From contig OZ024747.1 of the NCBI GenBank assembly GCA_964016885.1, positions 25,606,001 through 25,670,000 of the forward strand: 64,000 nucleotides of DNA. Direction: 5' to 3'. Below are positions 6,894 through 61,554 of this stretch, piece after piece. Origin of the DNA: Eledone cirrhosa. Taxonomy: Eukaryota. A program made the translations under genes and the position numbers. Numbering within the stretch: the stretch's first letter is position 1; every line of letters begins with the position of its first letter. The notes under the pieces were generated by a model, which did not search any database, was not told the origin of the DNA, and saw nothing but the letters and a program-made list of their open reading frames with translations.

Positions 6894-8065
6894 CAGGGGC
6901 GGATTGGCCTATCGGGCAACCGGGCAAATGCCAGAGGGCCGGTGCTGCTGCGAACATTTTAAACAATATTTTGGTCACTGACACTGCAGCTTGCAGTGTG
7001 GCCGGCCTTCCTGTATGCCGAAGAATGTTAGTACTATGTTGTGTAGCACGAGGTTCACGATAACTGAAGTGCAAAACACAGAGAGATGTAGAAGGGGTTC
7101 ATCGTGCTGTGTCAGAATTTATTGACTGGACTTCCAAAGAACTGGAAGAACGTTGTGAAGCTGATGGGATTGAAACTGTTTTGACGCCTCAAAACTCCTT
7201 TCCAGTAAACAGAGTGAGAAGAAAAAAGAGAATGCCAGGAGAAAATGGAAAAGACGAACCAATAGCCGACGCAATGGAAGATTTTACTGTGATTGTACAT
7301 AATAAGATCACAGATCAAGAAGTCCAAAGCTTGAAATCGAGATTTGAATCGAATGGTTCAATTTACAGAGATATGGCATGTTTATCGCCACTGAATTTTA
7401 GTGATATAGCCACCTGTCTGCCTCAGGATGCGTTGGAAACATTAAGTAGCCTACTTCTTCGTTTTGAACCGAGTGCAACGAAAGAGAACTTACAACTTGA
7501 ACTGATTAATCTTGCAAAAAATTGGAGCAGCCTTCGCAAAGGACTTCCTGAAGAATATGCCGCTGCCACTGCCAGACAATATGATGAAGATGAAGGTGAG
7601 CAAGTGGTTTCAACGGTTTGTAAGCGTTGTAAAAATTGTGCAGTGTGCGTTTATCAGACTCTGCAGGCTTACAACCTTTTGACTGATGCGTATGGACTAA
7701 TAGGATTAGCTTATAAATTGATGCTGACTCTATCAACGACGCAAGTTGCCTGTGAACGTTCCTTCTCAACTTTGAAGTTTGTGAAGAACCGTCTAAGAAG
7801 TACACTAACTGAAAAGCATTTGGATGCTCTCATGCTCATGTGTGTAGAAAAAGATGTACTTAGTGAGGTGGACTGCCAGGATGTTATTGACAAAGTCGCT
7901 GAAAACAGTGACCTACTTAAGAAAAACTTGACTTTTCAACTGCTTTGTGTAAATTATTTTCTTTTAAAAAATATTCTTTTTCAAAAAAACGTTTATTTAA
8001 TTTTGTTTATAGGGCTGGTTGCTTCGGATTTGCCAGGGCCGATTTTAAGTCCCAATCCGCCCTTG
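6894..8065 (+). mobile_element. Internally deleted hAT DNA transposon
   Basis: TIRs CAGGGGCGGATTGG / CCAATCCGCCCTTG. Degenerate 8-bp TSD CCAGTACC / ACAGCACC. Retains the transposase C-terminus. Confidence 0.9.
7109..7935 (+). pseudogene. hAT transposase C-terminal fragment with hATC dimerisation domain (ZMYM1-like)
   Basis: LTLSTTQVACERSFSTLKFVKNRLRSTLTEKHLDALMLMCVEKDVL. The N-terminal two-thirds is missing, and the computed ORF runs on through the TIR into the minisatellite. Confidence 0.85.
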
Positions 8066-8610
8066 ACAGCACCACCACCAACACCACAATCAACACCAGC
8101 ACCAGCCACACCACCACCAACACCACAATTAACACCAGCCACACCAGCACCACCACAATAACACCAGCATCACCACCCACACTACCACCACTACCACTAC
8201 AATCAACAACATCACCATCACTACAGTCAACAACAACGACGACGACAACAACAACAACAACATTTCCTAGAATAAGTATTAAAAAAGAAAGAACTTTCCT
8301 AGAAAATAACCACAAACAAGAAAGTTGAAAGTAAACGACCTGATTGTAAATTGCAAGGGATTGGTAAACACCTACATTATTTAGTGTCACACATTATTGT
8401 TCTGAATTGGAAGAAGCATGAATGTGACAATATTTTAACCAAGCCCCACGCCACACCAATGTAATACTTCATATACAAGTTTTTTTTATTGTTGAGTAGG
8501 AAGTGCATTGGAAAAGTCCTTAAAACATCAGATAAAATAATTTGTGGTATTCATTCTGGTTCTCTGTATTCTGAGTTCAAATCCTGCCAAGGTCAACTTT
8601 GCCTTTCATC

Positions 8611-10185: not shown

Positions 10186-10707
10186 GAACAACAGGACAGC
10201 CTGCTCATCATATTAACATGCAAGTGGCTAAGCTTCCCACAGATACGTGCACTCTTAACGTGACACACTGTACAACTGGGATGGCTTTTTGAATAACAGG
10301 TACAAGTCATTTTTCCCCAGCTGAGTGAACTGGAGCTTCGTGAAATTCAAGTATCTTGCTCAAGGACCCAACACACTGTTGGAAGTCAAACTCACAACTT
10401 ACAATCACCAACCAAACACCTTAACCACTAAATTTCACGCCTTCACAACACACTCACTCAGATACATATAAAAACAACAGTGTGGAATAGCTTACAAGGA
10501 TTCTGATCACTGACATTTGCCTCCCTCCTCTAACTAAGCACTAAATAAATAAGTAATTAGTATATATTAATTAATATATAAAATATGAAAACACGACTGT
10601 AATCAACAACAAACAAACTTGGAAATATAATACGAATGACCAATGTAATGCAAACATCAATGTTGTAAACTTCACGAAAAACAGATGTTACATCTGCATC
10701 AGAGGCA

Positions 10708-13700
10708 CCACTGCCACTGCACATCAGTTTCCTAGTACCAGAGATACCACCACCACCACTGCTATGTACCACAGTTTCCTAGTACCAGAGATACCACCAC
10801 CACCACTGCTATGTACCACAGTTTCCTAGTACCAGAGATACCACCACCACCACTGCTATGTACCACAGTTTCCTAGTACCAGAGATACCACCACCACCAC
10901 TGCTATGTACCACAGTTTCCTAGTACCAGAGATACCACCACCACCACTGCTATGTACCACAGTTTCCTAGTACCAGAGATACCACCACCACCACTGCTAT
11001 GTACCACAGTTTCCTAGTACCAGAGATACCACCACCACCACTGCTATGTACCACAGTTTCCTAGTACCAGAGATACCACCACCACCACCACTGCCACTGC
11101 ACATCAGTTTCCTAGCACGAGAGATACCACCACCACCACCACCACCACCACTGCTATGTACCACAGTTTCCTAGTACCAGAGATACCACCACCACCACCA
11201 CTGCCACTGCACATCAGTTTCCTAGCACGAGAGATACCACCACCACCACCACCACCACCACTGCTATGTACCACAGTTTCCTAGCACCAGAGATACCACC
11301 ACCACCACCACCACCACCACTGCCACTGCACATCAGTTTCCTAGTACCAGAGATACCACCACCACCACCACCACCACCACTGCCACTGCACATCAGTTTC
11401 CTAGTACCAGAGATACCACCACCACCACCACCACCACCACTGCTATGTACCACAGTTTCCTAGCACCAGAGATGCCACCACCACCACCACCACCACCACT
11501 GCCACTGCACATCAGTTTCCTAGCACCAGAGATACCACCACCACCACCACCACCACCACCACCACACATCAGTTTCCTAGTACCAGAGATACCACCACCA
11601 CCACCACCACCACTGCCACTGCACATCAGTTTCCTAGTACCAGAGATACCACCACCACCACCACCACCACTGCCACTGCACATCAGTTTCCTAGCATCAG
11701 AGATGACACCACCACCACCACCACCACTGCCACTGCACATCAGTTTCCTAGTACCAGAGATACCACCACCACCACCACCACCACTGCCACTGCACATCAG
11801 TTTCCTAGCATCAGAGATGACACCACCACAGACATCATCACCCCAGCACATCAAGACACCACCATTACTACTATACCATCAGTTTCTTAGTATCAGAAGT
11901 GGTACCCCCACCAAACCACCACCACCACAGACATCACCACCAGTTTCCTAGTATCAGAAGTGGTACCCCCACCATCACCACCACCACAGACATCACCCCC
12001 AGTTTCCTAGTATCAGCAGTGGTACCCCCCCACCACCACAGACATCACCCCCTGTTTCCTAGTATCAGAAGTGGTACCACCACCACCACCACCACCACAG
12101 ACATCACCCCCTGTTTCCTAGTATCAGAAGTGGTACCACCACCACCACCACCAGACATCACCCCCTGTTTCCTAGTATCAGAAGTGGTACCCCCACCATC
12201 ACCACCACCACCACCTCAGACATCACCAGTTTCCTAGAAATCAGAAGTGGTACCCCCACCATCACCACCACCACCACCACAGACATCACCCCCTGTTTCC
12301 TAGTATCAGAAGTGGTACCCCCACCATCACCACCACCACCACCTCAGACATCACCAGTTTCCTAGAAATCAGAAGTGGTACCCCCACCATCACCACCACC
12401 ACCACCACCACAGACATCACCACCAGTTTCCTAGTATCAGAAGTGGTACCCCCACCATCACCACCACCACCACCTCAGACATCACCCCCAGTTTCCTAGT
12501 ATCAGAAGTGGTACGCACCACCACCACCACCACCACAGACATCACCACCAGTTTCCTAGTATCAGAAGTGGTACCCCCACCATCACCACCACCACCACCA
12601 CAGACATCACCACCAGTTTCCTAGTATCAGAAGTGGTACCCCCACCATCACCACCACCACCACCACAGACATCACCCCCAGTTTCCTAGTATCAGAAGTG
12701 GTACCCACCACCACCACCACCACCACAGACACCACCCCCAGTTTCCTAGTATCAGAAGTGGTACCCACCACCACCACCACCACCACAGACATCACCCCCT
12801 GTTTCCTAGTATCAGAAGTGGTACCCACCACCACCACCACCACCACAGACACCACCCCCAGTTTCCTAGTATCAGAAGTGGTACCCACCACCACCACCAC
12901 AGACATCACCCCCAGTTTCCTAGTATCAGAAGTGGTACCCCTCACCATCACCACCACCACCACCTCAGACATCACCCCCAGTTTCCTAGTATCAGAAGTG
13001 GTACCCACCACCACCACCACAGACACCACCCCCAGTTTCCTAGTATCAGAAGTGGTACCCACCCCCACAACCACCACCACAGACACCACCCCCAGTTTCC
13101 TAGTATCAGAAGTGGTACCCACCCCCACCACCACCACCACAGACATCACCCCCAGTTTCCTAGTATCAGAAGTGGTACCCACCACCACCACCACCACCAC
13201 AGACATCACCCCCAGTTTCCAAGTATCAGAAGTGGTACCCCCACCACCACCACCACCACAGACATCACCCCCAGTTTCCTAGTATCAGAAGTGGTACCAC
13301 CACCACCACCACCACAGACATCACCCCCAGTTTCCTAGTATCAGAAGTGGTACCCCCACCATCACCACCACCACAGACATCACCCCCAGTTTCCTAGTAT
13401 CAGAAGTGGTACCACCACCACCACCACCACAGACATCACCCCCAGTTTCCTAGTATCAGAAGTGGTACCCCCACCATCACCACCACCACAGACATCACCC
13501 CCAGTTTCCTAGTATCAGAAGTGGTACCACCACCATCACCACCACAGACATCACCCCCAGTTTCCTAGTATCAGAAGTGGTACCCCCACCATCACCACCA
13601 CCACAGACATCACCCCCAGTTTCCTAGTATCAGAAGTGGTACCACCACCACCACCACCACAGACATCACCCCCAGTTTCCTAGTATCAGAAGTGGTACCA

Positions 13701-14050
13701 CCACCACCACCACCACAGACATCACCCCCAGTTTCCTAGTATCAGAAGTGGTACCCCCACCATCACCACCACCACAGACATCACCCCCAGTTTCCTAGTA
13801 TCAGAAGTGGTACCCCCACCACCAGTTTCCTAGCACAACGTACACCACTACAATTTCCTAGCTTAGCATAGGAGACACCACAACCACTATTACACACTGT
13901 AGACACCACCACCACCACCACCACCACCACACTTTCTTAGTACCAGAGATCCCACTACTACTACTACTACTACTACTACACATTACTCTTCCCTAGCACC
14001 ACAAACACCACCACCACCACCACCACCACCCTTTCTTAGTACCAGAGATC

Positions 14051-14084
<34 letters not shown>

Positions 14085-14155
14085 ACATTACTCTTCCCTA
14101 GCACCACAAACACCACCACCACCACCACCACCACACTTTCTTAGTACCAGAGATC

Positions 14156-14195
<40 letters not shown>

Positions 14196-14260
14196 ACATT
14201 ACTCTTCCCTAGCACCACAAACACCACCACCACCACCACACTTTCTTAGTACCAGAGATC

Positions 14261-14294
<34 letters not shown>

Positions 14295-14455
14295 ACATTA
14301 CTCTTCCCTAGCACCACCACCACCACCACCACCACCACCACACTTTCTTAGTACCAGAGATCCCACTACTACTACTACTACTACTACTACACATTACTCT
14401 TCCCTAGCACCACAAACACCACCACCACCACCACACTTTCTTAGTACCAGAGATC

Positions 14456-14486
<31 letters not shown>

Positions 14487-14551
14487 ACATTACTCTTCCC
14501 TAGCACCACAAACACCACCACCACCACCACACTTTCTTAGTACCAGAGATC

Positions 14552-14582
<31 letters not shown>

Positions 14583-14917
14583 ACATTACTCTTCCCTAGC
14601 ACCACAAACACCACCACCACCACCACACTTTCTTAGTACCAGAGATCCCACTACTACTACTACTACTACTACACATTACTCTTCCCTAGCACCACAAACA
14701 CCACCACCACCACCACACTTTCTTAGTACCAGAGATCCCACTACTACTACTACTACTACTACTACACATTACTCTTCCCTAGCACCACCACCACCACCAC
14801 CACCACCACCACACTTTCTTAGTACCAGAGATCCCACTACTACTACTACTACTACACATTACTCTTCCCTAGCACCACCACCACCACCACCACCACACTT
14901 TCTTAGTACCAGAGATC

Positions 14918-14948
<31 letters not shown>

Positions 14949-15193
14949 ACATTACTCTTCCCTAGCACCACAAACACCACCACCACCACCACACTTTCTT
15001 AGTACCAGAGATCCCACTACTACTACTACTACTACTACTACACATTACTCTTCCCTAGCACCACCACCACCACCACCACCACCACCACACTTTCTTAGTA
15101 CCAGAGATCCCACTACTACTACTACTACTACACATTACTCTTCCCTAGCACCACCACCACCACCACCACCACACTTTCTTAGTACCAGAGATC

Positions 15194-15224
<31 letters not shown>

Positions 15225-15289
15225 ACATTACTCTTCCCTAGCACCACAAACACCACCACCACCACCACACTTTCTTAGTACCAGAGATC

Positions 15290-15320
<31 letters not shown>

Positions 15321-15577
15321 ACATTACTCTTCCCTAGCACCACAAACACCACCACCACCACCACACTTTCTTAGTACCAGAGATCCCACTACTACTACTA
15401 CTACTACTACTACACATTACTCTTCCCTAGCACCACCACCACCACCACCACCACCACCACACTTTCTTAGTACCAGAGATCCCACTACTACTACTACTAC
15501 TACTACTACACATTACTCTTCCCTAGCACCACCACCACCACCACCACCACCACCACACTTTCTTAGTACCAGAGATC

Positions 15578-15614
<37 letters not shown>

Positions 15615-15679
15615 ACATTACTCTTCCCTAGCACCACAGACACCACCACCACCACCACACTTTCTTAGTACCAGAGATC

Positions 15680-15713
<34 letters not shown>

Positions 15714-15874
15714 ACATTACTCTTCCCTAGCACCACAAACACCACCACCACCACCACCACCACACTTTCTTAGTACCAGAGATCCCACTACTACTACTAC
15801 TACTACTACTACACATTACTCTTCCCTAGCACCACCACCACCACCACCACCACACTTTCTTAGTACCAGAGATC

Positions 15875-15905
<31 letters not shown>

Positions 15906-15970
15906 ACATTACTCTTCCCTAGCACCACCACCACCACCACCACCACCACACTTTCTTAGTACCAGAGATC

Positions 15971-16001
<31 letters not shown>

Positions 16002-16147
16002 ACATTACTCTTCCCTAGCACCACAAACACCACCACCACCACACTTTCTTAGTACCAGAGATCCCACTACTACTACTACTACTACACATTACTCTTCCCT
16101 AGCACCACCACCACCACCACCACCACACTTTCTTAGTACCAGAGATC

Positions 16148-16181
<34 letters not shown>

Positions 16182-16333
16182 ACATTACTCTTCCCTAGCA
16201 CCACAAACACCACCACCACCACCACCACACTTTCTTAGTACCAGAGATCCCACTACTACTACTACTACTACACATTACTCTTCCCTAGCACCACCACCAC
16301 CACCACCACCACACTTTCTTAGTACCAGAGATC

Positions 16334-16370
<37 letters not shown>

Positions 16371-16438
16371 ACATTACTCTTCCCTAGCACCACAAACCCC
16401 ACCACCACCACCACCACACTTTCTTAGTACCAGAGATC

Positions 16439-16475
<37 letters not shown>

Positions 16476-16540
16476 ACATTACTCTTCCCTAGCACCACAA
16501 ACACCACCACCACCACCACACTTTCTTAGTACCAGAGATC

Positions 16541-16574
<34 letters not shown>

Positions 16575-16642
16575 ACATTACTCTTCCCTAGCACCACAAA
16601 CCCCACCACCACCACCACCACACTTTCTTAGTACCAGAGATC

Positions 16643-16676
<34 letters not shown>

Positions 16677-16927
16677 ACATTACTCTTCCCTAGCACCACA
16701 AACACCACCACCACCACCACCACACTTTCTTAGTACCAGAGATCCCACTACTACTACTACTACTACTACTACACATTACTCTTCCCTAGCACCACCACCA
16801 CCACCACCACCACCACACTTTCTTAGTACCAGAGATCCCACTACTACTACTACTACTTCTACACATTACTCTTCCCTAGCACCACAAACACCACCACCAC
16901 CACCACACTTTCTTAGTACCAGAGATC

Positions 16928-16961
<34 letters not shown>

Positions 16962-17122
16962 ACATTACTCTTCCCTAGCACCACAAACACCACCACCACC
17001 ACCACCACCACACTTTCTTAGTACCAGAGATCCCACTACTACTACTACTACTACTACACATTACTCTTCCCTAGCACCACCACCACCACCACCACCACCA
17101 CACTTTCTTAGTACCAGAGATC

Positions 17123-17156
<34 letters not shown>

Positions 17157-17599
17157 ACATTACTCTTCCCTAGCACCACAAACACCACCACCACCACCAC
17201 CACACTTTCTTAGTACCAGAGATCCCACTACTACTACTACTACTACTACTACACATTACTCTTCCCTAGCACCACCACCACCACCACCACCACCACACTT
17301 TCTTAGTACCAGAGATCCCACTACTACTACTACTACTACTACTACACATTACTCTTTCCTAGCACCACAAACACCACCACCACCACCACCACCACACTTT
17401 CTTAGTACCAGAGATCCCACTACTACTACTACTACTACTACACATTACTCTTCCCTAGCACCACAAACACCACCACCACCACCACCACACTTTCTTAGTA
17501 CCAGAGATCCCACTACTACTACTACTACTACACATTACTCTTCCCTAGCACCACCACCACCACCACCACCACCACCACACTTTCTTAGTACCAGAGATC

Positions 17600-17633
<34 letters not shown>

Positions 17634-17884
17634 ACATTACTCTTCCCTAGCACCACCACCACCACCACCACCACACTTTCTTAGTACCAGAGATCCCACT
17701 ACTACTACTACTACTACTACTACACATTACTCTTCCCTAGCACCACCACCACCACCACCACCACCACCACACTTTCTTAGTACCAGAGATCCCACTACTA
17801 CTACTACTACTACTACTACACATTACTCTTCCCTAGCACCACCACCACCACCACCACCACCACACTTTCTTAGTACCAGAGATC

Positions 17885-17915
<31 letters not shown>

Positions 17916-17983
17916 ACATTACTCTTCCCTAGCACCACCACCACCACCACCACCACCACCACACTTTCTTAGTACCAGAGATC

Positions 17984-18014
<31 letters not shown>

Positions 18015-18079
18015 ACATTACTCTTCCCTAGCACCACCACCACCACCACCACCACCACACTTTCTTAGTACCAGAGATC

Positions 18080-18110
<31 letters not shown>

Positions 18111-18175
18111 ACATTACTCTTCCCTAGCACCACCACCACCACCACCACCACCACACTTTCTTAGTACCAGAGATC

Positions 18176-18206
<31 letters not shown>

Positions 18207-18271
18207 ACATTACTCTTCCCTAGCACCACCACCACCACCACCACCACCACACTTTCTTAGTACCAGAGATC

Positions 18272-18302
<31 letters not shown>

Positions 18303-18367
18303 ACATTACTCTTCCCTAGCACCACCACCACCACCACCACCACCACACCTTCTTAGTACCAGAGATC

Positions 18368-18416
<49 letters not shown>

Positions 18417-18478
18417 ACATTACTCTTCCCTAGCACCACCACCACCACCACCACCACACTTTCTTAGTACCAGAGATC

Positions 18479-18512
<34 letters not shown>

Positions 18513-18667
18513 ACATTACTCTTCCCTAGCACCACCACCACCACCACCACCACCACACCTTCTTAGTACCAGAGATCCCACTACTACTACTACTACTACT
18601 ACTACACATTACTCTTCCCTAGCACCACCACCACCACCACCACCACACTTTCTTAGTACCAGAGATC

Positions 18668-18701
<34 letters not shown>

Positions 18702-18769
18702 ACATTACTCTTCCCTAGCACCACCACCACCACCACCACCACCACCACACCTTCTTAGTACCAGAGATC

Positions 18770-18803
<34 letters not shown>

Positions 18804-18868
18804 ACATTACTCTTCCCTAGCACCACCACCACCACCACCACCACCACACCTTCTTAGTACCAGAGATC

Positions 18869-18902
<34 letters not shown>

Positions 18903-18967
18903 ACATTACTCTTCCCTAGCACCACCACCACCACCACCACCACCACACTTTCTTAGTACCAGAGATC

Positions 18968-19001
<34 letters not shown>

Positions 19002-19351
19002 ACATTACTCTTCCCTAGCACCACCACCACCACCACCACCACCACACTTTCTTAGTACCAGAGATCCCACTACTACTACTACTACACATTACTCTTCCCT
19101 AGCACCACAAACACCACCACCACCACCACCACCACACTTTCTTAGTACCAGAGATCCCACTACTACTACTACTACTACTTCTACACATTACTCTTCCCTA
19201 GCACCACAAACACCACCACCACCACCACCACCACCACCACACTTTCTTAGTACCAGAGATCCCACTACTACTACTACTACTACTTCTACACATTACTCTT
19301 CCCTAGCACCACAAACACCACCACCACCACACTTTCTTAGTACCAGAGATC

Positions 19352-19385
<34 letters not shown>

Positions 19386-19450
19386 ACATTACTCTTCCCT
19401 AGCACCACCACCACCACCACCACCACCACACTTTCTTAGTACCAGAGATC

Positions 19451-19484
<34 letters not shown>

Positions 19485-19824
19485 ACATTACTCTTCCCTA
19501 GCACCACCACCACCACCACCACCACCACACTTTCTTAGTACCAGAGATCCCACTACTACTACTACTACACATTACTCTTCCCTAGCACCACAAACACCAC
19601 CACCACCACCACCACACTTTCTTAGTACCAGAGATCCCACTACTACTACTACTACTACTTCTACACATTACTCTTCCCTAGCACCACAAACACCACCACC
19701 ACCACACTTTCTTAGTACCAGAGATCCCACTACTACTACTACTACTACTACTTCTACACATTACTCTTCCCTAGCACCACAAACACCACCACCACCACCA
19801 CACTTTCTTAGTACCAGAGATCCC

Positions 19825-19856
<32 letters not shown>

Positions 19857-19923
19857 ACATTACTCTTTCCTAGCACCACAAACACCACCACCACCACCAC
19901 ACTTTCTTAGTACCAGAGATCCC

Positions 19924-19955
<32 letters not shown>

Positions 19956-20022
19956 ACATTACTCTTCCCTAGCACCACAGACACCACCACCACCACCACA
20001 CTTTCTTAGTACCAGAGATCCC

Positions 20023-20054
<32 letters not shown>

Positions 20055-20525
20055 ACATTACTCTTTCCTAGCACCACAAACACCACCACCACCACCACAC
20101 TTTCTTAGTACCAGAGATCCCACTACTACTACTACTACTACTTCTACACATTACTCTTTCCTAGCACCACAGACACCACCACCACCACCACACTTTCTTA
20201 GTACCAGAGATCCCACTACTACTACTACTACTACTACACATTACTCTTCCCTAGCACCACCACCACCACCACCACACTTTCTTAGTACCAGAGATCCCAC
20301 TACTACTACTACTACTACTTCTACACATTACTCTTCCCTAGCACCACAGACACCACCACCACCACCACCACACTTTCTTAGTACCAGAGATCCCACTACT
20401 ACTACTACTACTACACATTACTCTTTCCTAGCACCACAGACACCACCACCACCACCACACTTTCTTAGTACCAGAGATCCTACTACTACTACTACTACTA
20501 CTACTCCTCCTCCCTAGCACCACAA
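10708..20525. repeat. ~9.8 kb compound satellite with three successive unit types
   Basis: Roughly 40-55 bp units (10708-11820), roughly 55-60 bp units (11880-13825) and roughly 80 bp units with (TAC)n and (CAC)n (13900-20525). All share TTTC(C/T)TAG(T/C)A(C/T)CAGA. Confidence 0.95.
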
Positions 20526-37319: not shown

Positions 37320-37785
37320 ATATTGTTATACTTGGCGAGGGTCATATTTGTGTAATAATATTGCCAGAATTAATAACATAACACACTCACTGTTTGGTTG
37401 GTTTTCGCTTCTGTGTCTTTTATATCGGTTAGTTTAATTTATTCGGTCCTCGATGTTACCATTGACTGACCAATGGTCAAAAATACAGATATAATATAGA
37501 CACAAACATATATATATAGTCTAATGTTAGACTATATATATGTGTTTGTGTCTATATTATATCTGTATTTTTGACCGTTGGTCAGTCAATGGTAACATTG
37601 AGGACCGAATAAATTAAATTAACCGATATAAAAGACACACAGAAGCGAAAACCAAACAGTGAGTGTTTTGTGTTATTAATTCTGGCAATATTATTACACA
37701 AATATGACCCTTGCCAAGTATAACAATATTTGTTTCGACACACGGTTTCATATCAAAAACCTCGCAAAACTAATTCATCGCCGTT
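37320..37785. mobile_element. Fold-back palindromic element (family D-related) in (TA)n
   Basis: Arms 37320-37524 and 37527-37729 with a 2-nt spacer (CTAA-TG-TTAG). The right arm extends ~55 bp further to a TA tract. Confidence 0.85.
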
Positions 37786-41107: not shown

Positions 41108-44100
41108 ATCATCATCATCATCATCATTTTACGTCTGCTTTTCCCTGCTTGCAAGGGTGGGACGGGTCTTATTCAGCACAGCATCTCTCCACTCGTCACG
41201 GTCCTTCGTCATCTCCACTGTTTTCACCACCTCCGCCCATGTTTTTCGTGGTCTACCTCTACCACGTCTTCCTTCAACTGGCATTTCCTGGCACTTCTTC
41301 ACCCATCGGTCATCCTCCATGCGCATCACATGTCCATACCACTTCAGTCTCCTCTCCCGTACACTACATTCTATCCCTCTCAGACAGTTTCTCTCTCAAC
41401 ACATTTATGCTGGGTCGTTCACGCACATTTACACTGCACATCCAATGGAGCATGCTTGCCTCATTTCTCTCCAGCCGTCGCATATCCTCTGCAGTTGCTG
41501 CCCATGTCTCACTACCATAAAGCATCGCGCTCCTCACACAGGCATCATACAACCGGCCTTTCGTACGCAGGGAGAAACCCTTCTTCGTCAACAGAGGAAG
41601 CAGCTCCCTAAACTTCTTCCAACCCGTCATTCTAGATACTATGGCCTCGGAACACCCTCCTCCCATGCTAATCTGATCTCCTAGGTACCACTTCTATAGC
41701 ACCCTCCTGCATTTGAAAAATGTGTCTATCAATGCGACTTCTACTGTCTAATTTCCCTGTACATCTACTGCATACATATTTCTCCCTACCTGTTAGTTTG
41801 CCTGCTATCCCGCTACATCTCTTGTGTACCCAGGATCTGAATTGTGTGCATTTTATAGGATTTATGCCAGTTCTTTTTCTGCATATCGAACATGGCCATT
41901 TCCCTGACGGAATCAGGGTTTTGTCCTCTTTTCTACTCATCAACACTTTTGTCTTAGCTAGGTTCACTCTCAGTCCTCTTGCTTCCAACTGCTGTTTCCA
42001 TAGCCAGAATTTATTCTCTAGCTCCTCTACTGATTCTGCTATAAGAACCAGATCGTCAGCATAGAGAAGTTCCCATGGACAGCCAGTCTTAAACTCCTCT
42101 GTTATGGCTTGGAGGACTATAATGAACAAGAGCGGGCTGAGGACCGAACCCTGATGTACTCTTACTTGTATCTGAAATTCCTCCCCTGACTTTACTGAGA
42201 GTACCTCTGTACAAAGTTTGCACTGTCCTCACAAGCCATTCCTCAACACCTAGCTTCCTTAGGGACCACCAGATGACAGATCGGGGTACCCTATCAAAGG
42301 CCTTCTCTAGGTCAACAAAGGCTAAGTATAGTGGCTTATTCTTCTCTAAGAACCTCTCTTGCAATTGTCTCACCAAGAAGAGGGCATCTGTTGTACTCTT
42401 CCCAGGCACAAAACCAAACTGCATCTCATCTAGTTTGACCCTTTCTCTAATTAGTTGTGCTAAAATCCTTTCTGCCACTTTCATAACCTGATCTATCAGT
42501 TTTATACCCCTATAATTGCTCCTCTCCAGAGCATCCCCTTTACCTTTGTAGCAATTTATGAGAATACTGCTGCACCAGTCTTTGGGTATGACACCACCAT
42601 ATATAGCCTGATTGATGGTGCGTGCAACCAGTTTAGTGCCTACGTCCCCTGATGCCTTCAGCATCTCAGCAACTATTCCCGATGGTCCGGCAGCCTTACC
42701 ATTTTTCATTTCCCTAATCGCCTCTTGGACCCTATATTCGTCAATCTCAATAGCTGGTCCCTCTGTCGGATCTACCAAGGGTAATTTCTCTCTCTCCCAT
42801 TTGTTCTCCACATTCATCAGTCTCTCATAATGACATTTCCAGGCCTCCTTTTTCTGATCATTCGTGACACTAAGTACACCGGCATCATCCCGGACACATT
42901 TATCTCCAACAACATCCTGATTTGCATTGACACACTGCCTTGCAATGTGGAACACCGCACCCCTCTGATCTTCCTGTCGCAGAACATTGGCAAACCTCCT
43001 ACTCTCTGCCTCCCTGCGTGCTAAGTACACCTGACGTCTAGCTTCTCTATTAGTGGCTGTATATTCTTCCCTACTCCCACCCTTTTTCCAAGCCTTCCAT
43101 GCTAGTCTTTTGTCTCTAAAAACCTTATCTACTGTGCTGTTGCACCACCAGGTCACTCTCTGTCTGGTTGGAGGTCTGCTCCAGCCACAAGTTTCATCAG
43201 TAGCCTGCAGCAAGTTATCACGTAAGAAATTCCAGTTATTATCTATGTCATACGTCTCTAAATCGTCTTCTTTTTCGTCATATACATCTTGAAGGGCTTT
43301 CCTAAATTTGTATTTTAGTGAAAGGTCTTTTAGCTTCCAGACCTTTCTTCTCCACACCTTCCTATATGTCTCATTCCATCTCTTGCTTACTGAGATATCA
43401 CTAACAACTAACCTATGCTGTGGGGTACATTCTTCCCCAGGGTATGCCTTGGTATTAGACACTATCTGCCTGTCCCGCTGCCTAACTAGTAAGAAGTCAA
43501 TCTGGCTTGTGTGCTCACCAGATTTGTAGGTTATTAGGTGATTGGCAGGTTTCTGGAAGTTTGTGTTGCAAATAGTCAATGTACATGCATCACAAAATTC
43601 AAGAAGTCTCACTCCTTCATTTCTTGAACCGTAACCGTGCCCACCATGTACCCCAGTGTAACCATCCTGGAGCTGTCCAACATGACCATTGAAGTCTCCT
43701 GCTAGCATAACGATGTCTCCGTCCTCTGTCATTGCAGTTGTTTGTAAAAGTTGCTCATAAAAGCAGTCTTTCTCATCTTTGTCTAGGCCTGCTTGGGGAG
43801 CATAGACCGAGATGATTGTCAGTAGTCTCCTGCCTACAACTAATCTAAGCTTAATTATTCGATTACTAACTCGAACTACCTCTATTGTCTTATTGATCCA
43901 TTTCTCAGCCAGGAAAATGCCTACTCCCCCTAACCCATCATCCTTACCTACCCAGAATAGCTTATAGCTAAGACGTTTGCCTACGACTAGTCTCGCAGAG
44001 GCACCTCTCCATCTCACCTCTTGCACGCAGCACACATCCACCTGCCTTCTCTCCAGCATCTCCGCTATTTCAGCAGATCTACCTCCGAGAGTGCCAACAT

Positions 44101-44208
44101 TAAGTGTTGCAACTCTGAGATGCGACGTCTTCATATTTTGTTGTTGTTCCTATTTATTGCTGTGCTGATAAGCGTCTTGGCATTGATACACTGGTTGGAT
44201 GCCCTGGT
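41108..44208 (-). mobile_element. Near-full-length RTE-clade LINE (frameshifted)
   Basis: Single APE+RT ORF broken into pieces (44134-42089, 42129-41668, 41666-41364, 41329-41129). (GAT)n tail at 41108-41127; TA tracts on both sides. Confidence 0.95.
41129..44134 (-). pseudogene. APE endonuclease plus reverse transcriptase (RTE ORF), disrupted
   Basis: APE motifs VATLNVGTL, CVQEVRWRG, GDFNGHVG, QIDFLL, HRLVV. RT motifs GKAAGPSGI, NYRGIKL, QFGFVPGKST, AFVDLEKAFDRV, LYADDLVL. Confidence 0.93.
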
Positions 44209-54018: not shown

Positions 54019-54868
54019 TCCTAGACAGGGCAACACTGTACCACACCGGGAGTCATTATAACCAGCTTCTGTGTAAGGTTGTATCCTCCAATATCCAGCA
54101 ACAGGAAAACTAGCCTAAGATTTTGCTGTCACTGGTGAAACACTTTCTTAGCCAACTTCAAACCACTGACCCCAGACATTCTGCAAGAGTTACTTCAGCT
54201 CCTCAAAGTCTTGTGTATTCACAGAGCAGACAGCCCAATGAGCTAACACACCAAAAGAACATCTGCATCAATTCCCAGCATATACACACCAGATGAACAT
54301 TATTGCTCAACCTCAGGCCAACCTCACATCAGCAGTGGAGACACTAGAATGCTACATGCATTAACATCAGAACACTGCTTATAGACAACTATCAACTTTG
54401 TTGGAGGAAATGATAGGGCACAAGAATAGGGCACAATTAGCCATCGTGTTACCATCTCGAATTACAATTATGGATATACCACCATATATTCTGAGTATAT
54501 AATATATAATTTATATATATATATATAATATATAATTTATATATATATATATAATATATATATATATATAATATATAATTTATATATATATATATATTAT
54601 ATATATATATTATATAATATATAATTTATATATATATATATTATATAATATATAATTTATATATATATATATAATTTATATATATATATATATATATAAT
54701 TTATATATATATATAATATATAATTTATACATATATATATATATTATATATATAATTTATATATATATATATATATTATATATATAATTTATATATATAT
54801 ATATATATTATATATATAATTTATATATATATATATATATTATATATATAATTTATATATATATATAT

Positions 54869-54925
<57 letters not shown>

Positions 54926-55121
54926 ATATATATAATATATAATTTATATATATATATATTATATATATAATTTATATATATATATATTATATATATATAT
55001 ATATATATATTATATTTATATATATATATATATATATTATATAATATATAATTTATATATATATATATATATTATATAATATATAATTTATATATATATA
55101 TATATTATATAATATATAATT

Positions 55122-55154
<33 letters not shown>

Positions 55155-55441
55155 ATTTATATATATATATATATATATTATATATAATATATAATTTATA
55201 TATATATATATATATATTATATATAATTTATATATATATATATATATATTATATAATTTATAATTTATATATATATATATATATATATTATATAATTTAT
55301 AATTTATATATATATATATATATATTATATAATTTATATATATATATATATTATATAATTTATATATATATATATATATTATATAATTTATATATATATA
55401 TATATATTATATAATTTATATATATATATATATATTATATA

Positions 55442-55563
<122 letters not shown>

Positions 55564-55618
55564 ATTTATATATATATATATATATATTATAATATATAAT
55601 TTATATATATATATATTA

Positions 55619-55651
<33 letters not shown>

Positions 55652-55941
55652 AAAACAAATAACGAAACGAAATTAAATTTCGTTTCTTGTAACTCACTTT
55701 TGTATGACTGACGCTTAAACAATTAAGTTAAAAATGTACATCCACATATGTATACTGAAATACTAGTATGCATATGAATACACACACGTATACATATGTA
55801 GATGTACCGAGTTTTTCACTGGTCACTTTACTGTGAGTGTCCAGCTATTCTGTATGTAAACACACAGACAAACCGGTTTTTAGAGTCATACTGGTTTTTG
55901 AGGAAACACCTTTCGTCTATTCTCCAGAAAGCCAGACAAGG

Positions 55942-55986
55942 AATATTGAACTAGTTTCGATGTTGTTACATCTCATCAGCAATATT
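55942..55986 (-). ncRNA. Minimal type-I hammerhead ribozyme (family E)
   Basis: Reverse complement of 56275-56319. Confidence 0.85.
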
Positions 55987-56274
55987 TACCTATCTTCCGG
56001 CCCTTTCTAGAGAATCGTAAAAGCACATATCGTTATATACTTTTTCTATGAAAATTAGTAGTGGGCAGACTAATTTGCATAGAGCGTGAGAACGTACCGG
56101 TTCAACGGAGACGATAAAAACAAATAACGAAACGAAATTAAATTTCGTTTCGTTTGTAACTCACTTTTGTATGACTGACGCTTAAACAATTAAGTTAAAA
56201 TGTACATCCACATATGTATACTGAAATACTAGTATGCATATGAATACACACACGTATACATATGTAGATAGGTA

Positions 56275-56319
56275 AATATTGCTGATGAGATGTAACAACA
56301 TCGAAACTAGTTCAATATT
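56275..56319 (+). ncRNA. Minimal type-I hammerhead ribozyme (family E)
   Basis: AATATTG-CTGATGA-GATGT-AACA-ACATC-GAAA-CTAG-TT-CAATATT: perfect 7-bp stem I, 5-bp stem II, palindromic CTAG, GUU triplet. Confidence 0.88.
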
Positions 56320-57035
56320 CCTTGTCTGGCTTTCTGGAGAATAGAGGAAAGGTGTTTCCTCAAAAACCAGTATGACTCTAAAAACCGGTTTGTCTGTGTG
56401 TTTACATACAGAATAGCTGGACACTCACAGTAAAGTGACCAGTGAAAAACTCGGTACATCTACATATGTATACGTGTGTGTATTCATATGCATACTAGTA
56501 TTTCAGTATACATATGTGGATGTACATTTTTAACTTAATTATATATATATATATATAATATATATATATATAATATATTATATAATATATAATTTATATA
56601 TATATATATATATATTATATAATATATAGTTTATATATATATATATTATATAATATATAATTTATATATATATATATATTATATAATATATAATTTATAT
56701 ATATATATATATATTATATAATATATAATTTATATATATATATATATATATATTATATAATATATAATTTATATATATATATATATATTATATAATATAT
56801 AATTTATATATATATATATATTATATAATTTATAATTTATATATATATATATATTATATAATTTATAATTTATATATATATATATATTATATAATTTATA
56901 TATATATATATATAGTATATAATATATAATTTATATATATATATATATTATATAATATATAATTTATATATATATATATATATTATATAATATATAATTT
57001 ATATATATATATTATTTATATATATATATTATATA

Positions 57036-57074
<39 letters not shown>

Positions 57075-57370
57075 TATATAATATATATGTATAATATATA
57101 TATATAAATTATATAATATATATGTATAATAATATATATAAATTAATATATTATATAATATATATGTATAATGTATATATATAATATATATATATAATGT
57201 ATATATATAATATATATATATAAATTATATATTGTATAATATATTGTATAATATATATAAATTATATATTATATAATATATATATATAATATATATATAT
57301 AAATTATATATATATAATATATATAATAATATATATATATATATATATATTATTTATATATATATATATA

Positions 57371-57401
<31 letters not shown>

Positions 57402-57696
57402 TATTTATATATATATATTATTTATATATATATATTATTTATATATATATATATATAATATATATAATATATATATATATATATTATTTATATATATATA
57501 TTATTTTATATATATATATTATTTATATATATATATTATTTATATATATATATTATTTATATATATATATTATTTATATATTATTTATATATATATATGA
57601 TATATATATAATATATATAATATATATATATATATATTATTTATATATTATATTATTTATATATATATATTATATATATATTATTTATATATATAT

Positions 57697-57907
<211 letters not shown>

Positions 57908-57921
57908 ACTATATATATATA

Positions 57922-57961
<40 letters not shown>

Positions 57962-58989
57962 TATATATATATATATATATTATATATATATAATATATAT
58001 ATATAATTTATATATATATATTATATATATTATATTATATAATATATAATTTATATATATATATTATATAATATATAATTTATATATATATATTATATAT
58101 ATATATTATATAATATATAATTTATATATATATATTATATATATATATTATACAATGTATTATACAATATATAATTTATATATATATATTATATATATAT
58201 ATATTATATATATATATTATACAATATATTATACAATATATAATTTATATATATATATTATATATATATTATACAATATATTATACAATATATAATTTAT
58301 ATATATTATATATATATATTATAATATATAATTTATATATATAATATATATATATATATTATACAATATATAATTTATATATATATATTATATATATATA
58401 TTATACAATATATAATTTATATATATATATTATATATATTATACAATATATAATTTATATATATATATTATACATATATATTATATAATATATAATAAAT
58501 AATTTATATATATATATATTATATATATATATATTATATAATATATAATAAATAATTTATATATATATATTATATACATATATATTATATAATATATAAT
58601 TTATATATATATATTATATAATATATAATATATAATAAATAATTTATATATATATATTATATATATATATATTATATAATATATAATATATATATATATA
58701 TTATATAATATATAATATATAATTTATATATATATATTATATATATATATTATATAATATATAATTTATATATATATATTATATAATATATAATATATAG
58801 TTTATATATATATATTATATAATATATAATTTATATATATATATTATATAATATATAATTTATATATATATATTATATATATATATTATATAATATATAA
58901 TTTATATATATATATTATATATATATATATAAATTATATATTATATAATATATATATATAATATATATATATAAATTATATATTATATA

Positions 58990-59020
<31 letters not shown>

Positions 59021-59390
59021 ATTATATAATATATAATTTATATATATATATATTATATAATATATATATTATATAATATATATATATATATATTATATAA
59101 TTTATATATATATAATATATAATATATATATATTATATAATATATATATATATTATATAACATATATATTATATATATATATATATTATATATATATATA
59201 TATTATATATATATATATATTATATATATATAATATATAATATATAAATATAATATATATATATAAATATATAAATATAATATATATATATATAATATAT
59301 AAATATAATATATATAATATATATATATAATATACATAATATATATATATAATATATAAATATATTATATATATATAATATATATATTAT

Positions 59391-59927: not shown

Positions 59928-61538
59928 TCATCATCATCATCATCATCATCAGGTTTAGCGTCCGTGTTCCACGCTTGCATGGGTTTGGACGGGGGTTTTC
60001 CCACTTGAGGCAAGAGTGGTTGTCTTGCTCGCATAGGACTGTCTGGCGGGTTTTCTACAGTTGGATGCCCTTCCTAACACCAACCACATTTACAGTGTGG
60101 GGCTGGGAGGTTTTTACCGTGTTGCCTACACGGCCACATTTACAGCGTGGACTGTGTGTTTTTTGTCGTGACACCTACACGATCTCATTTGTTTCGGCCT
60201 GGATGTTGTGGGACCAACATAACTTTACATTGAAAGGGGCAGTGTGGATGGGGTGGGGGTGGTGGGACGGGGGTGTATTTTGTTAGAGATGCCTACTGAC
60301 TGTAGTAGGTTTTACTTTGTATTTAGGTAAGGCGGGTCTTCTCTATTACTGAGTACCGCTAAAGGTCTCGGTCCAGTAACATTGTCTTGGAGAGGTGTAA
60401 GTGTGTGAGGTCAGAATTTATCAGCTCGTCCCAGGTTTTTCTGGGTCTTCCTACTCCGTGGCTACCATCTATCTTTATTGCCCTGCACTTTGTTATACAG
60501 CTGTCGTCTTTCATGCACATCACGTGACCATACCAACGTAGCCTTCTCTCGAGTAAACAACATCTGATCCCTCTTATTTCTAATTTTTTCCTTAGTTTGT
60601 TTATGCTTTGCCGTTCACGTATATTACTATTACACATCCAGCGTAGCATGCAAGCTTCGTTCCTCTCTAGTCTGCGTATATCCTCTGCACACAATGCCCA
60701 GGTCTCACTGCCATGCAACATTGCTGTTCGTATGCAGGCATCATACAACCTGCCTTTCATTTTTAGGGAGAACCCTTTAGTGGCTAATAGTGGTATAAGC
60801 TCTCTGAACTTTTTCTATCCAGTTCTGACTCTAGCTACTGTACTTTCAGAGCACCCTCCCCCACTGCTTATTTTGTCACCCAGGTAACGGAACCTATCCA
60901 CTATTTCTATAGAACCCTCTGCGCAATTGAAAGAGCTAGTATTTAGTGGGCACTTGCTGCTACTTATTGCACCAGAGCACCGGCCACATGTAAAATCTGT
61001 GTTCTGAGTTAGCTTACCTGTGATCCCACTACATCTTTTATACACCATACTTTGCATTTGGGACATAAAATGGAGTTTCCTACCTACGCATTTCCTACAC
61101 ACTGAGCATGGCCATTTCCCGGAAGGGACCGGCGCCTTATTTTCTTTCCTACAAACTAGAACTTTAGTCTTAGCCAGGTTAATTTTAAGGCCTTTTGATT
61201 CTAGGCCGTGCTTCCATTTTTGGAATTTCTTCTCTAGCTCGGCCATTGATCATCTGCGTATAGGAGTTCCCATGGGCAGCCGGTCTTGAACTCCTCTGTT
61301 ATAGCCTGAAGGGCAATAATAAATAGTAGGGGGCTAAGAACAGAGCCCTGATGGATACAACTTTACGCTAAACTCTTCACTATATTCGTTGTTAATTCTA
61401 ACCTTGCTGACTGTTTCTTTATACATGGCTTGTATAGCTCTCACAAGCCATTCGTCAACACCTAGTTTTCTAAGAGCCCACCAGATAATGGAATGGGGGA
61501 CTCTGTCGAAGGCTTTCTCCAAGTCGACAAAAGCTAAG
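59928..61538 (-). mobile_element. 5'-truncated RTE LINE (divergent family) with a long SINE-like 3' region
   Basis: LAFVDLEKAFDRVP, GKWPCSVCRK, FRYLGD, LRWYGHV, GRPRKTW. 59928-60190 carries the 48-bp-unit / GGGCATCCAACTGTAGAAA module and a (GAT)n tail. Confidence 0.88.
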
Positions 61539-61554
61539 TATATATATATATATA

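Follow-up and report, generated by a model that had tools for sequence, protein, structure and literature searches.

A 466-nt repeat, one insertion of which lies in the window (the whole stretch of 64,000 nucleotides of Eledone cirrhosa DNA that was analysed), was found to be inserted as two inverted arms whose outer ends are fixed at two different positions of the repeat unit. The element is of a known kind, a metazoan non-LTR retrozyme, and its insertion record is unusually informative on mechanism. Considering all the evidence, we estimate at about two in three the probability that the repeat is inserted by a Penelope-like reverse transcriptase which primes both cut strands of the target, at two fixed sites, on one RNA that is likely circular.

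The element (55651-56540) is enclosed by TA arrays that begin near 54500 and finish near 59350-59385 (some 4.9 kb, element included), and its parts are summarized in Table 1, where the unit is numbered 1-466 from the left end of the window copy. This copy is a typical short case, made of 619 nt from site 1 (arm 1, 1.33 units) and 275 nt from site 2 (arm 2, which terminates at unit position 347). An earlier note, made from the letters alone, had described this arrangement inside the TA array, with an inverted copy of about 275 nt joined through AGAT, and the analysis agreed with it: arm 2 differs from the inverse of 55721-55995 by 1 mismatch in 275, and the microhomology of 4 nt is exact. What had been called an inverted copy of segments B' and A' is present, minus the first 70 nt of segment A, a 'tail' that is confined to the outer end of arm 1. 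The terminal redundancy of about 153 nt is also there as a direct repeat (55649-55803 and 56114-56269, 98% identical over 157 columns, period 465-467), although it is merely the beginning of a second unit. Since arm 2 is contained within arm 1, the window copy taken alone fits equally well the folding back of one cDNA and priming on two strands; in its TA array the target duplication is unresolvable. As it has one hammerhead per strand, the window copy is probably an ordinary daughter, dead and unable to release a monomer.

Table 1. Features of the retrozyme insertion and its surroundings (positions of the window)
Feature	Positions	Strand	Remarks
Left (TA)n-type array, target site	54500..55650	n/a	
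Arm 1 (cDNA sense)	55651..56269	+	from site 1 (unit position 1) to unit position 155
'Tail', 70 nt between start sites 1 and 2	55651..55720	+	long predicted hairpin
One full retrozyme unit, RNA sense	55651..56115	-	465 nt in the window copy, 466 nt in most copies
Type I hammerhead, arm 1	55926..55997	-	predicted cut after GUU, between 55949 and 55948
Octamer ATGCAAAT	56073..56080	-	5' arm of predicted hairpin
Beginning of second unit	56114..56269	+	two small deletions separate it from the first copy
Type I hammerhead, arm 2	56264..56335	+	predicted cut after 56312
AGAT microhomology between arms	56266..56269	n/a	exact, 4 nt
Arm 2 (cDNA sense on minus)	56266..56540	-	from site 2 (unit position 73, at 56540) to unit position 347
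Right (TA)n-type array	56541..59385	n/a	

The hammerhead reported in the earlier note is borne out by matches of both arms to the Rfam family HH9 and becomes two motifs on opposite strands, with 37.4 bits (E 7e-6) for arm 2 and 36.5 bits (E 1.4e-5) for arm 1, both under the Rfam gathering score of 52; the GUU triplet is located as it had been claimed (56310-56312). The arm 2 motif, read by eye, is made of stem I AAUAUUG/CAAUAUU, CUGAUGA, stem II GAUG/CAUC and GAAA, with a stem III of 2 bp, the short palindrome ACUAGU, and in the window copy position 17 is U. The hammerhead alone folds no better than shuffled sequences (z -1.5), and a whole sister unit folds far better than its shuffles (z -11.4). 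Among 27 chosen units, stem II displays a compensatory change (17 A-U, 10 U-A), and 9 of 139 predicted pairs have changes on both sides. The cleavage triplet at unit position 301 is polymorphic in the non-overlapping locus set (GUU 245, GUC 112, GUG 2). The GC content of the unit is 35.5%, and the longest ATG-initiated reading frame in tandem units has 50 codons.

The octamer ATTTGCAT that had been noticed at 56073-56080 is present, and it is kept in 490 of the 507 units of the 466-nt family. It would fit a promoter of the snRNA type. This role is putative and unproven, because the octamer belongs to a predicted hairpin, as part of its 5' arm, and one of the two copies aligned from a related family has it disrupted. 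According to the passages of the source seen, newt satellite 2 is also a hammerhead tandem repeat, with an internal promoter of the snRNA type (PMC2220036), and it is in the hairpin location of the octamer and the putative character of its promoter role that the retrozyme departs from it.

Other features of the window deserve mention. Motifs resembling type I hammerheads, from other families and with a palindrome as stem III, occur at positions 44, 2991, 3427 and 37881, and an inverted repeat at 37320-37729 resembles another two-armed insertion in TA. Large tandem arrays with periods of 47-59 and 96, rich in CAC/ACT and probably satellite, occupy 10706-20505; in this array region, the minus strand holds a stop-free frame of 2,204 codons (13903-20517). 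There are also a hAT transposase fragment (7064-8161), a LINE fragment with an endonuclease and reverse transcriptase frame (42089-44149) and another LINE piece, which we take to be RTE-like, at about 59930-61540, ending in CAT repeats inside TA. Rfam microRNA matches in the window were caused by the TA repeats and were discarded.

Concerning the size of the family, the TA-joined end at site 1 gave 2,667 matches in the 3.0 Gb genome, with slight double counting (95 distinct among the first 100 matches listed), and from this it is concluded that there are roughly 2,500 insertions, mostly in (TA)n. A 45-nt stretch of the hammerhead has 921 exact matches (0 for the control); a 72-nt DNA search of the genome gave nothing, and copies were found by pattern search. 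With a 321-nt query, 139 candidates were obtained, of which the 40 scored were 98-100% identical, and there are subfamilies as low as 88% identity. In size, the insertions go from less than one unit up to about 70 units (arrays, by span), or from about 100 nt to more than 14 kb. Arms reaching some 30 to 70 units, at L061-L063 (C1:5.74 Mb), at C1:81.85-81.88 Mb and at L228-L230, may mark source loci or may have been amplified locally at a later time. In two other organisms (runs X5 and X6) there are 495-nt contigs of the family, about 97% identical, one of which wraps round by 467 nt. A second retrozyme-like family, with a period of about 423 nt and about 68-74% like the 466-nt family, was seen at L242:1390-1965 (G000 C28) and also at L165, L023, L011, L096, L068, L088 and L209; it has the stem III word and the octamer hairpin in common with the 466-nt family, forms inverted arms and has one end that coincides with the equivalent of site 2.

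The ends of the insertions follow a simple rule. Both arms read inward in the cDNA sense, one from unit position 1-3 (site 1) and the other from 68-78 (site 2), with the inner junction falling anywhere. In 68 of 107 complete clusters site 1 is paired with site 2, and 11 more do the same with a very short second arm, called by motif only and therefore weaker; 3 pair site 2 with site 2, 3 pair site 1 with another end, 22 are single-armed, and none of the 107 pairs site 1 with site 1. Clusters running off a locus were left out of this count, and the three site-2/site-2 insertions had been fetched on purpose. As most loci had been sampled from contig C1 by TA-junction patterns, two less biased sets were examined. 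Hand reading of 26 insertions found by internal sequence alone showed 19 that pair site 1 with site 2; in all 26, one end or both fall at site 1 or 2, and none pairs a site with itself. The other set consisted of the 80 distinct site-2 ends among the first 100 matches listed. Of these, 59 pair with site 1, while the rest, in a hand tally, are 6 ends belonging to the three site-2/site-2 insertions, 11 that are single or unclear and 4 unresolved. Site-2/site-2 insertions are thus 3 in 62, to be compared with the one third expected under free choice (P 6e-8). The exceptions to the pairing rule are these three (L248, L249 and L250, two of them with extra internal switches) and the roughly 1 in 5 clusters that are single-armed. 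Both flanks are TA in 66 of 74 insertions, and target duplications of 11-12 bp were found at the non-TA sites L013, L103 and L111, with similar ones at L172 and L205. The circular permutation of outer ends that the earlier note had proposed to look for was not seen, the outer ends being fixed.

The nature of the template was approached through the changes private to each insertion. The difference between the two arms of an insertion has a median of 0.6%, versus 3.3% between insertions (49 insertions), and an arm has its own partner as the nearest in 24 of the 49 and within the nearest three in 40. Private substitutions in 83 insertions were distributed as follows: 25 in all units of both arms, 9 in all units of the sole arm covering them, 157 in single units, 8 in some units of one arm and 1 in some units of both arms, the last not being index-matched. 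Clusters of A>G changes occur in only 2 of the 83. In L187, 5 private changes are A>G in the RNA sense and recur in each unit on either arm, and the 22-nt word carrying them occurs 4 times in the genome, always at L187 and on both arms; L188 has 8 such changes in all units of one arm, with a word found twice in the genome, both times at L188. Clustered A>G changes in double-stranded RNA are the signature of ADAR. Identical clusters in every unit are what would be expected if one circle were copied repeatedly, and, as far as sequence can tell, the L187 cluster points to one edited circle as the template. No general excess of A>G was found in the 83 insertions outside L187 and L188 (all-unit private changes, 2 A>G versus 6 U>C), nor any unit with at least three private single-unit A>G changes. 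The predicted cut site is crossed by 96 of 126 arms, and 303 crossings contain 1 indel, which is not above the level of 12 control sites. Since the cut site bears no scars, jumping from one end to the other of a cleaved, linear monomer is disfavoured. The scarless passage of units through this site, together with the private changes common to the units of an insertion, upholds the earlier reading of a retrozyme copied from a circular or tandem RNA. It should be considered that units would share changes in much the same manner if the template had been a homogeneous linear multimer or if a donor locus had been lost, and that L012 and L091 mix two subfamily types, so that some insertions used two templates.

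Several other explanations were weighed against priming of both strands on one circle. A single target-primed cDNA could fold back or switch onto itself, with the endonuclease trimming the far end. This would suit the microhomology of at least 2 nt in 14 of the 20 cleanly resolved joins (null, 18%; of 63 junctions, 41 gave negative values in which inserted bases are mixed with reference mismatches, and 2 failed), as well as the 56 of 83 insertions, the window copy included, in which one arm may be nested in the other. However, neither arm is contained in the other in 18 of 63 insertions and in 9 of 20 in a second sample, and the arms of these 27 in 83 cannot be mutual copies. In addition, the arm ends are uncorrelated (no more than 20 nt apart in 4 of 63, with 5.5 expected), and the longer arm can be either (34 versus 29). 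It follows that each arm started on its own. So, folding back is contradicted as a general mechanism, for which we hold it very improbable, and survives only for individual copies. The same applies to the template switch by which the earlier note explained the inversion: the second arm has its own fixed start, and the 27 insertions carry sequence that the other arm is without. A template switch is likely at the last step only, joining two cDNA ends via microhomology. Arms end at the predicted cut (positions 297-300) in 6 of 126 cases (1.1 expected) and in 0 of 40 in the second sample. Another possibility retains priming on two strands and dispenses with the circle, the templates being one or two molecules of long linear multimeric transcripts of arrays. 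Arrays of 30-70 units do exist, the two insertions of mixed subfamily type would be easily accommodated, and hammerhead cleavage was dispensable for insertion by a Penelope-like protein in vitro, according to the passages seen of PMC11167929. On such a template, edits should be specific to a unit, yet the clusters of L187 and L188 are identical in all units and the arms show no index-matched sharing, so that we regard this alternative as unlikely.

It could also be thought that the repeat is the detached pseudo-LTR of an autonomous Penelope-like element, which left truncated stubs and was later amplified as a satellite by unequal crossing-over. The relation of retrozymes to pseudo-LTRs in Xenopus, described in the part seen of bioRxiv 10.64898/2026.07.22.740005, would agree with it, and so would the longest arrays, which are probably locally amplified. 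It is nevertheless improbable, considering that no copy among the loci examined runs on into a reverse transcriptase frame, that neither a pseudo-LTR match nor any sequence link to an autonomous partner was found in 47 GIY-YIG loci of the 150 scored (10,597 candidates), and that multi-unit arms point inward from both target ends. Finally, it is scarcely credible that the element is a MITE or other DNA transposon, or that it arose as an artefact when the TA array was assembled. The outer ends are indeed fixed, as the earlier note had said of transposons with terminal inverted repeats and target duplications, but they correspond to two distinct internal start sites, the duplications are of 11-12 bp, there are no terminal inverted repeats and the length is variable. 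The conserved hammerhead with its compensatory pair and the dozens of loci with a like plan and different junctions also speak against it. With respect to an artefact, no piece across the window junction was present in the contigs of 4 runs, which is neither support nor refutation, and comparable joints between arms were seen in independent contigs of run X1.

Returning to the preferred reading, priming of both cut strands on one likely circular RNA, its steps may be pictured as follows. Tandem arrays elsewhere would be transcribed, and their hammerheads would release monomers to be ligated into circles, as in known retrozymes. A Penelope-like GIY-YIG endonuclease would nick the two strands of a target rich in TA, with about 11-12 bp between the nicks, a distance suggested by the duplications at non-TA sites. 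One DNA end would then prime at site 1 (1-3) and the other at site 2 (68-78), in line with the paired ends observed. Each polymerase would circle the template, covering as little as a fraction of a unit or as much as tens of units, which is consistent with the variable arm lengths, and the two cDNA ends would be joined via short microhomology or a few extra bases, such as those seen at the junctions.

Concerning a possible enzyme, GIY-YIG sequences are abundant in the genome (10,597 candidates, with 150 scored above the cut-off). The locus L231 has a frame with reverse transcriptase and GIY-YIG between pseudo-LTRs, and a CxxxxCxxC motif precedes its endonuclease; such a motif is of the kind described for the Neptune and Nematis clades in the passages seen of PMC8557442. 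The family of L231 has two sites, separated by 60 nt, at which its copies end in TA, and one site is paired with the other in 11 of 11 two-armed copies among the 32 loci listed. This family follows the two-site rule of the retrozyme, with no detected sequence in common; by pattern search, no hammerhead was found in its pseudo-LTR. It is a young Penelope-like family (L231:2281-7260, L236, L242, L232, L239, L240; 92-97% between copies), with long reading frames, TA targets and many short two-armed stubs. A match at L242, considered as an autonomous partner, turned out to be the second retrozyme family adjoining a Penelope-like copy. In a more specific version of the proposal, a Penelope-like dimer would prime the two target strands on a single RNA circle, with one dedicated site for each strand, and would roll round that circle, an idea on which we would bet neither for nor against.

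As far as the parts seen of the sources go, the family resembles metazoan non-LTR retrozymes in being a non-coding tandem repeat with a type I hammerhead, a GC content below 50%, target duplications of more than 4 bp (here, 11-12 bp at non-TA sites), a highly self-paired predicted RNA and Penelope-like elements in the same genome; no LTR-flanked interior was seen in the loci examined. The unit of 466 nt is slightly above the 150-450 bp given by Cervera and de la Pena 2020 (PMC7229834) and inside the 51-972 bp given by Li, Clavereau and Pollet 2026 (bioRxiv 10.64898/2026.07.22.740005). In the portions at hand, the former proposes circles and Penelope-like mobilisation for these retrozymes, and the latter ties retrozymes to pseudo-LTRs and reports that only 1 of 9 predicted retrozyme dimers was cleaved in vitro; these portions of both make no mention of inverted two-arm insertions, two fixed starts or edits in all units.

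Penelope-like elements are known to form tandem and inverted copies with a one-sided tail (Craig et al. 2021, PMC8557442), and a Penelope-like protein cleaves and extends both strands in vitro, with two adjacent internal starts (Frangieh et al. 2024, PMC11167929), always within the passages seen of both papers. The retrozyme insertions are like those of the endonuclease-bearing elements in the partial tandem with an adjoining inverted copy, the tail at one end, the two adjacent internal starts, the extension of both strands and the TA or AT-rich targets. They are unlike them in the length of the tail (about 70 nt versus 30-40) and in the many units per arm, and the retrozyme has no reverse transcriptase and GIY-YIG frame, so the likeness is limited to the manner of insertion. 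Those same passages do not state for Penelope-like elements the pairing of one site per arm. A search limited to titles and the start of abstracts found no published one-site-per-arm pairing or edited circles in retrozyme insertions, although supplements might hold such figures. In the twin priming of L1 that Ostertag and Kazazian are said to have put forward in 2001, both target strands reportedly serve as primers on the RNA, and an inversion results when the two cDNAs are joined through microhomology; the arms are said to be adjacent, non-overlapping parts of a linear RNA, with a variable second site. In contrast to that process, both sites of the retrozyme are fixed and its arms overlap by entire units.

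The way in which animal retrozymes are copied into the genome, and the origin of the tandem and inverted structures of Penelope-like elements, are open questions in the literature, as far as the parts seen of it go. If the proposed mechanism, in its more specific version, is true, it would explain the tandem and inverted structure of Penelope-type insertions and would prove that retrozymes are mobilised through circles. The 466-nt family offers young natural products by the thousand, their start sites being defined to the base, on a template small enough for in vitro tests, and the same genome carries a candidate enzyme family with a matching footprint. Under that version of the mechanism, each genomic insertion would record a single circle, A-to-I edits included, and, if edits of the circle are written into DNA, past RNA editing in the germ line would be preserved in the genome as a fossil record.
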